Shown here: positions 47,507 to 50,506 of the stretch, in pieces
How positions within the stretch are numbered: the stretch's first letter is position 1
How the letters are laid out: every line of letters starts with the position of its first letter
Source: Escherichia phage JoYop
Length of the DNA stretch: 64,000 bases
Sequence record: OR769032.1
Reading direction: 5' to 3' (one strand)
Notes under the pieces: generated by a model
Seen by the model: only the letters and a program-made list of their open reading frames with translations
Told to the model about the DNA's origin: nothing
Database searches by the model: none
Position numbers and translations under genes: made by a program

Positions 47507-47980
47507 TTATTTGATTTGTTTAGCAGACCAAATGCGGTCTTTAATAATTTTTTGGATGTCTTCAACATACTCAAGAGAGTGAACATGCGGGTTATCTTTG
47601 AAACTATAAGCACGAGCTAGCTTTTGGCCTTCAGTTTTGATTACTAAAAGCTCTTTAAGGATAGCTTCATATTTGGAAATAATTCCTTTAACAATATTTT
47701 TCTCTTGTGCGACTTTAGGATCTGCTTTAGGAGCAGGTTTACCTGAAGCTTTTGCAAAAGCAGCTCCAGTAGCAACTAAACTTTTCCAAGCCATACTAAC
47801 TGCATTTCCCGTAAATCCTTCTGCTTTCATATCGCGAGCAAATTGGAATCGCGATTCATCAGAAGCATCTTTATAGGAATATTTACCCGCGGCAATGGCA
47901 GCTTTTGCGACAGCTTGAATTTCGGTGCTAGATGCTTCATTTAACACCGCTTCATTTAAAAATTGAGCATATGATTTCAT
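47507..47980 (-). CDS. internal-protein-like protein with capsid-targeting N-terminus
   Basis: 157 aa; MKSYAQFLNEA; RBS AGGAAA; own late promoter upstream; bounded by terminators on both sides. Confidence 0.65.
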   Translation of the reverse strand: MKSYAQFLNEAVLNEASSTEIQAVAKAAIAAGKYSYKDASDESRFQFARDMKAEGFTGNAVSMAWKSLVATGAAFAKASGKPAPKADPKVAQEKNIVKGIISKYEAILKELLVIKTEGQKLARAYSFKDNPHVHSLEYVEDIQKIIKDRIWSAKQIK

Positions 47981-48016
47981 CTTATTTCCTGTTTTAATTC
48001 GGGGTTTTAATATACT

Positions 48017-48024
48017 TATTTATA
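48017..48024 (-). promoter_or_regulatory. T4-type late promoter (TATAAATA)
   Basis: tatttata on plus = TATAAATA on minus, about 37 nt upstream of the ATG at 47980. Confidence 0.5.
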
Positions 48025-48026
48025 CT

Positions 48027-48053
48027 AAAAAGCCCCAACCTTTCGGTTGGGGC
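48027..48053 (-). terminator. rho-independent terminator
   Basis: Minus strand GCCCCAACC-GAAA-GGUUGGGGC followed by UUUUU. Confidence 0.7.
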
Positions 48054-48059
48054 TAAGCC

Positions 48060-48385
48060 TTGCGGCAACCTTGTCGGGGTTCCACCTGCTAAGGCAAGTG
48101 TTTGTACGAAACGCCGGGATTCGAACCCGGTTATCAAGCAGTTGACGCTACTCAATATTTTTAAAAGGCCATATCTCGACCATATCCGAACGTTCCGTCA
48201 AAAACGCTACTCGGCTTACGGCAAAGATATTTCCTCGAATCGATAATTCGGTGCGCCGTTTCTGCTGTGATATAAGGGAACATTAACAGATCGTAAAGAT
48301 TTGTTAATGCCGGTCCTTAAACAGGGAGCATCAGTCCGACGACTTACCGGTAGCGACCCGGTTTCTTAATATTCTTTTAAAGCAT
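48060..48385 (-). ncRNA. structured non-coding RNA region distal to the tRNA cluster (possible T4 stable-RNA homolog)
   Basis: No convincing ORF; tRNA-like T-arm gggattcgaacccgg at 48116-48130; bounded by terminator and tRNA-Arg side gene. Confidence 0.35.
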
Positions 48386-48389
48386 CAAT

Positions 48390-48716
48390 TTATTCACAGC
48401 GTTTACGCCATAAATCAATTGCTTCATAAGCGGATTCAGCATTTCGAATTAGCCGGCATTTATGTAAAGACTTATGATTTTGATATTGTGTAGATAATGG
48501 AATTGTATCTAAAAGGTCTTTACGATCAAAGTATTCGTAACCATCTAAACCAAATGAACGATTTTTGAGAAATTGCCAATGGCCAAATTCATTTTCAACA
48601 TAAACATAATCTGCATGCTGATAAAGCAAATTAATTACGCGTTCAGAAATAACAGTATCATTATGATTAAAATAAAATGTTAAATCATGAACTACTAAAT
48701 AAACATTACCTTTCAT
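48390..48716 (-). CDS. hypothetical protein inside the tRNA/ncRNA region
   Basis: ATG 48714-48716 with RBS GAGGA (MKGNVYLVVHDL...); 108 aa; track ORF over-extended into tRNA-Arg. Confidence 0.55.
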   Translation of the reverse strand: MKGNVYLVVHDLTFYFNHNDTVISERVINLLYQHADYVYVENEFGHWQFLKNRSFGLDGYEYFDRKDLLDTIPLSTQYQNHKSLHKCRLIRNAESAYEAIDLWRKRCE

Positions 48717-48734
48717 ATTTTCCTCACTTATAAT

Positions 48735-48811
<77 letters not shown>

Positions 48812-48994: not shown

Positions 48995-49069
48995 TGGTGG
49001 CCCTGGGTGGAATTGAACCACCATCTGGCGATTATGAGTCGCTTGCTTGAACCTTCCAGCTACAGGGCC
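48995..49069 (-). tRNA. tRNA with CAU anticodon (Met, or Ile if the wobble C is modified as in T4)
   Basis: Loop CTCATAA; acceptor GGCCCTG/CAGGGCC; T-arm GGTGGTTCAATTCCACC. Confidence 0.75.
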
Positions 49070-49499: not shown

Positions 49500-50132
49500 T
49501 TATTTATTACGTGAAAAAGACTGTTCTATCAATTCTGGACACTTTCGTTCTATCCATTTTCTAGCTTTTTGTGGGCTTATACCTATTATTTTAGCAGCTT
49601 TACTAACCCATCCAAATTTAGAATAATCGATTTTAACTAATTCTTCGTAAATTTCATCAGTTAAAATCTTTTCATTAATATTTACCAGTAAATGATATAA
49701 TTTATTATCATTAGCAATTTTAATGAATCTTTTATAGTTTCCGCCTTTACTTAAACCTAATGAAGTAATTGCAGATGATATAGTAGCCGAATTTAATAGT
49801 GCGTTTAAAATTTCTTCATCACTAACATTATAACGCTTTTTATTATTTTTAATATTTTTACCAGCAAAAGTATCAGTTTGCGAATGGCAATTTGGACATA
49901 ATAATCTTAAATTTGATTTAAGATGATTTTTGTTATTTCCATCAATATGATCTAATTGCAGAACAATATGCTTATTTTGCCATTTTGAAATTTTACAAAT
50001 TGCACACTCATATGGAAAAATATTTTCTTTTATTATTTTGTCTTTCAGCTTTCCTGTACTAAAATTTGGATGTTTTCCTTCAAAAATTTCAGCTAATTTA
50101 GTATCCATAATATAATTCCCAATTATTAACAA
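49500..50132 (-). CDS. HNH homing endonuclease
   Basis: 210 aa; HNH core LQLDHIDGNNKNHLKSNLRLLCPNCHSQ; sits at the 5' head of the tRNA cluster. Confidence 0.75.
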   Translation of the reverse strand: MLIIGNYIMDTKLAEIFEGKHPNFSTGKLKDKIIKENIFPYECAICKISKWQNKHIVLQLDHIDGNNKNHLKSNLRLLCPNCHSQTDTFAGKNIKNNKKRYNVSDEEILNALLNSATISSAITSLGLSKGGNYKRFIKIANDNKLYHLLVNINEKILTDEIYEELVKIDYSKFGWVSKAAKIIGISPQKARKWIERKCPELIEQSFSRNK

Positions 50133-50218: not shown

Positions 50219-50506
50219 TTACCATTTATGCCGATACGTATTTACGATACATTCAAGACCCAAAGGATTCTTGAAAACATCATATTCAAGAGGACCTTTT
50301 TCTGTTTCAATAAAGAAATCAAAATTTACTATATTAAATTTACGGTCTTCCTTTACTAATTTAACTTGAGAAGATGAACGGTCAATGTAAACCTTTTCAA
50401 CTTCAAAACATGTTAAAATGCCATAATCATCAATCAAGGCTTTAGCTGCTTCTTGATCATATTTATATCCATTTTCAACGGATGATACTTTCGCATAAAG
50501 AATCAT
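50219..50506 (-). CDS. hypothetical protein
   Basis: 95-aa ORF. Confidence 0.5.
   Translation of the reverse strand: MILYAKVSSVENGYKYDQEAAKALIDDYGILTCFEVEKVYIDRSSSQVKLVKEDRKFNIVNFDFFIETEKGPLEYDVFKNPLGLECIVNTYRHKW

Follow-up and report, generated by a model that had tools for sequence, protein, structure and literature searches.

The interval downstream of the tRNA cluster of Escherichia phage JoYop contains the counterparts of the T4 small stable RNAs rnaC and rnaD

Introduction

What does a phage encode in the stretch behind its transfer RNA (tRNA) genes when hardly any protein can be read from it? This question is raised by Escherichia phage JoYop (sequence record OR769032.1), of which a stretch of 64,000 nucleotides (nt) was analysed; this whole stretch is referred to here as the window. 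The window is that of a Tequatrovirus (T4-like) genome, and all features around the interval of interest, positions 48060-48385, are located on the minus strand. An initial annotation, made from the sequence alone, had described this interval as a structured region without convincing coding capacity, located between a terminator and tRNA-Arg and containing a tRNA-like arm, and had proposed that it may be the counterpart of the two small stable RNAs that T4 encodes next to its tRNA genes. The interval is indeed an already known feature: it contains the counterparts of T4 rnaD and rnaC. We consider it very probable that the explanation as a whole is correct, namely that this interval forms the 3' end of the tRNA transcription unit and contains rnaD and rnaC orthologs that are processed in a tRNA-like manner.

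Results

The interval contains orthologs of T4 rnaC and rnaD

A megablast search with positions 47950-48800 of the window returned 775 phage records, nearly all of them from the genus Tequatrovirus, with Kha5h, RB51 and RB68 as top matches (96-97% identity). The annotations that lie under the matching regions are rnaC, rnaD, tRNA-Arg and a terminator. These matches go beyond chance, as the 341-nt interval alone matches 799 phage records. Moreover, the interval aligns to the annotated rnaC (species 1 RNA) and rnaD (species 2 RNA) genes of T4 (NC_000866), T4 GT7, RB68, RB6 and Kha5h. In the annotation of NC_000866, rnaC is described as "small, stable RNA; species 1 RNA" (70908-71046, 139 nt) and rnaD as "species 2 RNA" (71053-71171, 119 nt), with tRNA-Arg located one base further on. 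The features of the JoYop locus are the following:

49493 to 48735, minus strand: cluster of nine tRNA genes (Leu, Gly, Pro, Ser, Thr, Met(CAU), Tyr, Asn and Arg), detected by ARAGORN and Rfam
About 48369 to 48250, minus strand: rnaD ortholog (T4 species 2 RNA) of about 120 nt, aligned with T4 nt 4-119 (116 of the 119 nt)
48249-48244, minus strand: 6-nt spacer GAAUUA between rnaD and rnaC (AAAUUA in T4), from the alignment
48243 to 48105, minus strand: rnaC ortholog (T4 species 1 RNA) of 139 nt, identical to T4 at 136 of the 139 positions over its full length (157 bits)
48055-48104, minus strand: conserved 3' trailer of about 50 nt, near-identical in T4 and removed from mature rnaC
48054 to 48031, minus strand (48026-48054 in the wider delimitation): strong intrinsic terminator with a 10-base-pair (bp) stem, a GAAA loop and a U-run; a terminator is annotated in Kha5h

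On the minus strand the order is thus rnaD, the 6-nt spacer, rnaC, the 3' trailer and the terminator, and tRNA-Arg, the last gene of the tRNA cluster, is located upstream of the interval. The 5' end of rnaD was placed by the alignment with T4, with a possible error of about 3 nt. The flanks named in the initial annotation, the terminator and tRNA-Arg, are correct, and an open reading frame (ORF) of 108 amino acids (aa) additionally sits between tRNA-Arg and the interval. The coding capacity of positions 48060-48385 is as weak as had been stated: the only ORFs are short (up to 53 aa) and the strands are mixed.

The proposed relationship to the two T4 RNAs was supported by the annotated rnaC and rnaD matches, by the alignment and by a covariance model. 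The model, built from rnaC homologs, gave a single match in the 64-kb window, at 48105-48243 on the minus strand (157 bits, E = 2e-38). In addition, the 139-nt and 120-nt segments are predicted to fold better than shuffled sequences (z = -3.8 and -2.8, respectively). The initial description required refinement in three respects: the T-arm is present in rnaC only, the interval also holds the 3' trailer, and an ORF splits rnaD from tRNA-Arg.

The rnaC genes of JoYop and T4 share their strand, their order (rnaD, spacer, rnaC, trailer and terminator) and their predicted fold, and differ by three substitutions only, two of which are located in arm II, at pairs that vary among homologs, and one in arm I. 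The two rnaD genes are both located directly upstream of rnaC and have identical invariant 5' (AGAAACCGGGUCGCUACCGGUAAGUCGUCGGACUGAUG) and 3' (AUCACAGCAGAAACGGCGCACC) blocks, the first 38 and the last 23 aligned positions being identical, whereas the sequence in between, which forms the middle hairpin, diverges and contains many changed positions and small indels. Another difference is that T4 rnaD starts one base after tRNA-Arg, whereas the 108-aa ORF lies in between in JoYop, as it does in RB68, RB51 and Lutter.

The trailer consists of the hairpin CACUUGC-CUUA-GCAGGUG (48083-48100), followed by GAACCCCGACAAGGUU and then by a small hairpin, and this make-up is conserved in Tequatrovirus. In Dhakavirus (loci L007 and L014) the small hairpin shows a change from a G-C to an A-U pair, and in Dhakavirus dhabil and VR5 the Tequatrovirus trailer and terminator directly follow rnaD. 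The trailer may itself serve as a signal for processing.

Covariation supports a tRNA-like four-way fold of rnaC

The 139-nt rnaC has a minimum free energy of -49.3 kcal/mol (z = -3.8 compared to shuffled sequences) and is predicted to form a tRNA-like four-way junction, which has the following elements:

48236-48242 with 48107-48113, minus strand: acceptor-like stem CGAUUCG/CGUUUCG, nt 2-8 with nt 131-137, seven positions
48166-48235, minus strand: arm I, a long irregular hairpin, nt 9-78; 18 of its 26 pairs are changed on both sides among homologs
48132-48157, minus strand: arm II, nt 87-112, a 10-bp stem with a 6-nt loop; 9 of the 10 pairs are changed on both sides
48130 to 48114, minus strand: T-arm CCGGG-UUCGAAU-CCCGG, nt 114-130, one base after arm II and running straight into the 3' strand of the acceptor-like stem

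Arms I and II are separated by an 8-nt A/U linker. The 3' tail of rnaC is UA, followed in the genome by CAAA instead of CCA, and the annotated mature end is ...GUA. The T-arm-like element that had first drawn attention to this region, gggattcgaacccgg at 48116-48130 on the plus strand, was confirmed: on the minus strand it corresponds to a 5-bp stem with a canonical 7-nt T-loop.

Homologs of rnaC were gathered from GenBank phages, IMG/VR and metagenomes. In a first set of 10 sequences from five genera, 12 of 47 pairs were changed on both sides and 98% of the cells were paired. Covariance model R1 was then used to align 44 copies, of which 33 are distinct, from about nine lineages (Tequatrovirus, Karamvirus, Kanagawavirus, Kagamiyamavirus, Moonvirus, Gelderlandvirus, Marfavirus, Edwardsiella phage PEi20 and Citrobacter phage Ursula). 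In this alignment, which is fitted to the secondary structure of the model itself, 96.4% of the cells of the 33 distinct homologs are paired, compared to 35-49% (about 41%) when the partners are slid by one to three columns. Changes on both sides were found for 30 of the 52 pairs, and none of 500 shuffles attained the observed covariation score. The JoYop sequence is compatible with all consensus helices.

All ten pairs of the middle helix of arm I covary, and the stems of this arm have been rebuilt in Melville, Kosakonia 305, NM4.3, Ursula, PEi20 and the Marfa-type phages. The third pair of the T-stem is compensatory (U-A in 16 sequences, G-C in 15 and A-U in one). In the acceptor-like stem the third pair is G-C in 20 and A-U in 13 of the distinct sequences; its other four Watson-Crick pairs are invariant, and so are its two U.U mismatches. 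One lineage, Kanagawavirus mime (Enterobacter phage Q7622, locus L005, 1509-1648; also loci L021, L032 and L034), has the T-loop sequence UGCAUGC instead of UUCGAAU and keeps the T-stem and the rest of the RNA.

Two candidate motifs were rejected. A kink-turn at the bulge of arm I was dismissed because the bulge is not followed by tandem G.A pairs. A Shine-Dalgarno role of the invariant GAGGA motif was discarded because there is no start codon downstream and the motif is predicted to be paired.

The apical loops of arms I and II are complementary

The two arms of rnaC carry loops that are perfect complements of each other:

48201 to 48196, minus strand: apical loop of arm I, UUGACG, nt 43-48, complementary to the loop of arm II in 33 of 33 distinct homologs
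48147 to 48142, minus strand: loop of arm II, CGUCAA, nt 97-102, the perfect complement of the arm I loop

When treated as a pseudoknot, the six loop-loop pairs, which are absent from the model used for the alignment, are 100% paired throughout the 33 distinct sequences, 28 of which have A-U and five G-C. The exchange is seen in the Marfavirus-type copies (Klebsiella phages and contigs from IMG/VR and metagenomes), in which the loops are UUGGCG and CGCCAA and the A4-U3' pair is replaced by G-C. No change in either loop is seen in PEi20, Melville, Kosakonia 305, NM4.3 and Ursula, despite arm I stems that are rewritten nearly completely. By our own calculation, two loops of 6 nt would be fully complementary in the Watson-Crick sense by chance in about 1 of 4096 cases. 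A scan of metagenomes added only Tequatrovirus and Marfavirus-type copies and no second independent loop covariation, and an IMG/VR pattern search anchored on the loops added only loci L059 and L060, both of which were rejected by the covariance model as chance matches.

Together, the data indicate that the loops probably form a kissing-loop contact. A contact within one molecule would require arm I to fold back on itself where its conserved purine-rich bulge of 3-4 nt and its internal loop are located; one between molecules would give dimers or head-to-tail chains. The loop-loop complementarity of rnaC has apparently not been reported before.

rnaC shares only part of the tRNA architecture

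In canonical tRNAs, including those of class II (RF00005), and in rnaC alike, a 7-position acceptor stem, which in rnaC is acceptor-like, runs into a 5-bp T-stem with a UUCGAAU loop, and the whole is a four-way junction. Arm II is located where class II tRNAs have their long variable arm, 1 nt before the T-stem. However, rnaC has neither a D-arm nor an anticodon arm, is 139 nt long and contains two invariant U.U pairs in its acceptor-like stem. Its 3' tail, UA followed by CAAA, is not NCCA and therefore lacks the discriminator-plus-CCA end.

ARAGORN and the Rfam tRNA models (RF00005) detected nine tRNAs in the window and none at 48060-48385. Rfam searches at gathering thresholds (whole window) and at E values up to 10 (47900-48800) returned only tRNAs and sub-threshold chance matches to isrK, anti-hemB and tRNA-Sec (16 bits, E = 3.2). 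Conversely, apart from rnaC itself, the rnaC model matched only class II tRNA-Ser genes, weakly (18 bits), which would agree with the location of arm II in place of the long variable arm. ARAGORN calls the 3' 95 nt of the rnaC of PG7 and SonariX "tRNA-Met", and in some records the RNA is annotated as tRNA-Met or tRNA-OTHER. Moreover, in Karamvirus, Kagamiyamavirus, Moonvirus and Gelderlandvirus rnaC occupies tRNA-sized slots, a few bases of spacer separating it from its neighbours, in the arrangements Trp-[rnaC]-Gly, Phe-[rnaC]-Trp and Met-[rnaC]-Gly. A tRNA ancestry of rnaC is plausible but unproven.

By analogy, rnaC may also be compared to tmRNA and YrlA, in which an acceptor and T-arm mimic is placed on helices that are not those of a tRNA, and like these RNAs it would be stable and is probably recognised by tRNA enzymes. 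Unlike rnaC, YrlA uses its 5' and 3' ends for the Ro-binding stem and not for the acceptor mimic. For the JoYop locus, ARAGORN reported no tmRNA, no tag reading frame was found, and there was no match to the tmRNA or YrlA families of Rfam up to E = 10.

rnaD has an exchangeable hairpin between invariant blocks

The fold of rnaD (z = -2.8) was derived as a consensus structure from eight sequences, and its two hairpins are:

48362-48346, minus strand: 5' hairpin H1, an ACCGG/CCGGU stem with the invariant 7-nt loop GUCGCUA
48272-48320, minus strand: variable middle hairpin, for which at least three unrelated sequence cassettes are present between invariant flanks

The closing pair of H1 has changed from A-U to G-C in SHFML-11 and in Lutter-type phages. 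A "terminator-like" match on the plus strand is the complement of this hairpin. An invariant closing helix is formed by GUCGUCG with CGGCG(C)AC and uses almost the whole 3' end of the RNA. In the inner helix one pair is swapped among 29 distinct copies (U-A in 18, A-U in nine and U.U in two). The cassettes are distributed as a mosaic among phages, even within Tequatrovirus (loci L015, L023, L051, L007 and L062); for instance, the Tequatrovirus loci L023 and L051 carry the cassette of pEC-M719-6WT.2. This distribution looks like recombinational swapping of cassettes, and the sequence comparisons show rnaD as a predicted scaffold in which invariant 5' and 3' blocks surround an exchangeable hairpin. 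Pairing of the H1 loop (CGCUAC) with GUAGCG motifs of rnaC was considered and rejected, since GUAGCG is not kept in all rnaC lineages.

At window position 48328 (minus strand, rnaD nt 42) JoYop has a C where most homologs have a U (GAUGCUCCC vs GAUGUUCCC), which turns a U.G pair of the inner helix into C-G.

Variation in this region has also been seen during adaptation of a phage. A T-to-C single-nucleotide polymorphism (SNP) in the rnaC-rnaD region, assigned to rnaD, was the only convergent change in three lines of BW1, a T4-like phage, that were adapting to ECOR34, a semi-permissive host (PMC12685909). This SNP could not be placed on the rnaD structure because no accession is available and the published coordinates are internally inconsistent (PMC12685909).

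rnaC and rnaD are found independently of each other

Among the loci examined, rnaD is present without a match to the rnaC model in Dhakavirus dhabil and VR5, in Gaprivervirus UPEC07 and in pEC-M719-6WT.2. The reverse situation is found in Karamvirus, Moonvirus and Gelderlandvirus, where tRNA genes directly flank rnaC and no rnaD is adjacent, and in Q7622, where tRNA-Met directly precedes rnaC, again with no adjacent rnaD. Judged by this distribution, each of the two RNAs is a module of its own. When the 185,579 species genomes of GTDB, bacterial and archaeal, were scanned with an rnaC pattern, no matches were obtained, and neither rnaC nor rnaD has an Rfam family.

Expression and processing

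In T4, the species 1 RNA was reportedly sequenced in the 1970s. Ribonuclease (RNase) P is needed for its 5' end, RNase III cleaves it in vitro, and a dimeric precursor of species 2 and species 1 has been described. More recently, RNAC and RNAD were detected in T4 as late RNAs "of yet unknown functions", and a Northern blot with an RNAC probe served as validation (PMC9697503). One of the two RNAC template oligonucleotides used in that study is identical to nt 1-58 of JoYop rnaC.

In JoYop, transcription would start from promoters upstream of the tRNA cluster and would pass through the nine tRNAs, the 108-aa ORF, rnaD, rnaC and the trailer to end at the terminator. Sites with the late-promoter consensus TATAAATA are located upstream of the cluster, at 50467 and 50775. 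Both RNAs would be cut from this long precursor in the way tRNAs are. The acceptor-like stem and T-arm of rnaC would offer a suitable shape to RNase P and the 3' trimming enzymes, and would act as a processing handle and stabiliser. The tRNA-like end is best read as such a handle because of this RNase P-type shape and because rnaC occupies tRNA-sized slots in other genera. In the same scheme, rnaD would be left as the upstream product and be trimmed back to its closing helix; since this helix takes up almost the whole 3' end, trimming may stop there. For the 5' end of JoYop rnaD, the precursor would be cut endonucleolytically in the A/U-rich sequence that precedes H1.

Neighbouring genes

The 108-aa ORF (MKGNVYLVVHDL...), at 48716 to 48390 on the minus strand, separates tRNA-Arg from rnaD, which are one base apart in T4. 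A match was obtained to phrog_3355 (unknown function, E = 2e-51) and none to a Pfam family. RB68, RB51 and Lutter carry this insertion as well. At the other end of the tRNA cluster, an HNH endonuclease gene (49500-50108, minus strand; phrog_14736, E = 5e-124) ends 7 bases upstream of tRNA-Leu. T4 and Kha5h have tRNA-Gln at this position, and ARAGORN detected no tRNA-Gln in the window. Related phages have other homing endonucleases elsewhere in the cluster, such as SegB (T4) and a truncated SegB-like gene (RB68).

Immediately after the terminator, an exact copy of the T4 late-promoter consensus TATAAATA is present at 48017-48024 (minus strand). About 35 bases downstream of it is a 157-aa ORF (47507-47980, minus strand; phrog_2280, unknown function), which T4 does not have at this position, e.8 being there instead. 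Within the cluster, ARAGORN assigns tRNA(CAU) (48995-49069, minus strand) to Met, and the Lutter record has tRNA-Ile-CAT at the corresponding position. This gene may encode a lysidine-dependent tRNA-Ile, which would match the tRNA-Ile slot of T4.

Discussion

The interval at 48060-48385 of JoYop has an identity, that of T4 rnaD and rnaC, and this in turn raises the question of what the two RNAs do. For rnaC, our tentative guess, which is a model, is that it may be a shape-constrained tRNA mimic that binds a protein able to read tRNA architecture. The guess is based on the pairing of the loops, on the invariance of the U.U pairs and of the apical segment, and on the failure to find an antisense target in searches of the window and of E. 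coli genomes. Such a protein could be an enzyme of tRNA processing or modification, or a host nuclease that is directed at tRNAs and would be titrated by rnaC. A host-specific role of rnaD is hinted at by its exchangeable cassette and by the BW1 SNP. Combining these ideas, rnaC would be a phage-specific tRNA mimic locked by a kissing loop that acts as a decoy for a host factor, and rnaD would be a scaffold whose cassette tunes growth on particular hosts; we regard this full combination as quite improbable.

A different function would be that rnaC, rnaD or both are trans-acting antisense regulators of phage or host messenger RNAs, which would act through their single-stranded segments or through the variable hairpin of rnaD. 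The RNAs have been termed "small regulatory RNAs" (PMC9697503), an exchangeable middle cassette in an invariant scaffold resembles a targeting module, and the convergent change in the three adapting lines (PMC12685909) maps to the rnaD region. However, the conserved loops of rnaC are complementary to each other and co-vary, and are thus probably occupied. Moreover, no complement of at least 13 nt to either RNA is present elsewhere in the 64-kb window, and the 12-mers that are found are all A/T-rich and at chance level. A blastn search of the interval against 5,426 complete Escherichia coli genomes (E up to 10) gave no match either, although short complementarities are invisible to such a search of a 28-Gb database, and according to a review no trans-acting small RNA has been characterised in T4 (PMC3014915). 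An antisense function is therefore unlikely in our view, and the compact fold with its mutually paired loops makes us favour a partner that reads shape.

Alternatively, the two RNAs might be cis-acting modules for processing or stability, that is, structured 3' blocks that protect the upstream tRNAs or order their maturation and that accumulate as by-products. Their position in Tequatrovirus would agree with this, as they close the tRNA transcript at its 3' end, shortly before the terminator, and so would the conservation of trailer and terminator in phages without rnaC. However, rnaC is located in the middle of the cluster and not at its 3' end in Karamvirus, Moonvirus, Gelderlandvirus and others. 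Moreover, a by-product would not retain an invariant apical segment of 45 nt and two invariant loops across genera that have rebuilt the stems by compensatory changes. We consider this explanation quite improbable.

It is very improbable that the RNAs are decayed tRNA genes, i.e., non-functional pseudogene remnants. A perfect T-arm and an acceptor-like stem are what such remnants could retain, tRNA finders sometimes call rnaC, and the model matches class II tRNA-Ser genes at 18 bits. Nevertheless, about nine lineages show strong purifying selection together with compensatory changes, which contradicts the status of a pseudogene, ARAGORN and the Rfam tRNA models make no call at this place in the window, and T4 accumulates the RNAs as stable species (PMC9697503). 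Finally, the view that the interval encodes small proteins, as the "hypothetical protein" records have it, is hardly credible: many records carry automatic hypothetical coding sequences and ORFs of 40 and 53 aa overlap the interval, but the substitutions are paired across helices and show no codon periodicity, so that covariation contradicts this view, homolog lengths of 138-142 nt imply indels that are not multiples of three, no ORF is common to the lineages in frame and strand, and the curated T4 annotation and Northern data show RNAs.

Several points nevertheless weigh against parts of the explanation that we prefer, in which rnaD and rnaC are processed in a tRNA-like manner and rnaC may be a tRNA mimic. 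The ends of the RNAs are transferred from T4 by alignment, and it is from T4 that the stable transcripts are known. Because an ORF intervenes between tRNA-Arg and rnaD, the 5' end of JoYop rnaD must be made differently from that of T4. The T-loop sequence is not indispensable, since the Q7622 lineage has lost its consensus and kept the rest. The covariation between the loops is suggestive rather than conclusive, as it represents one evolutionary event in one lineage, and the contact could be formed either within one molecule or between molecules. T4 remains viable on laboratory hosts when deletions take away its entire tRNA region, and any function of rnaC or rnaD would therefore be conditional. 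The function of rnaC as a protein decoy or shape mimic is something that we only infer.

Both RNAs are expected in any T4-like phage of the genus Tequatrovirus, and the curated annotation of T4 names them. In most GenBank records, however, the interval is blank, is filled with spurious "hypothetical protein" coding sequences, or is partly called a tRNA. The alignments and the rnaC model presented here could mend these annotations as well as the gap in Rfam. To what was known from T4, our analysis adds exact coordinates, a covariation-supported structure of rnaC with a probable kissing loop and invariant U.U pairs, and an outline of the structure of rnaD. It also adds the distribution of the two RNAs among phages, their apparent independence as modules and the seemingly swappable cassette of rnaD, which together provide a basis for choosing mutants and phenotypes. 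If true, the reading of rnaC as a decoy and rnaD as a scaffold would give a first function to two RNAs that are said to have been known since the 1970s.

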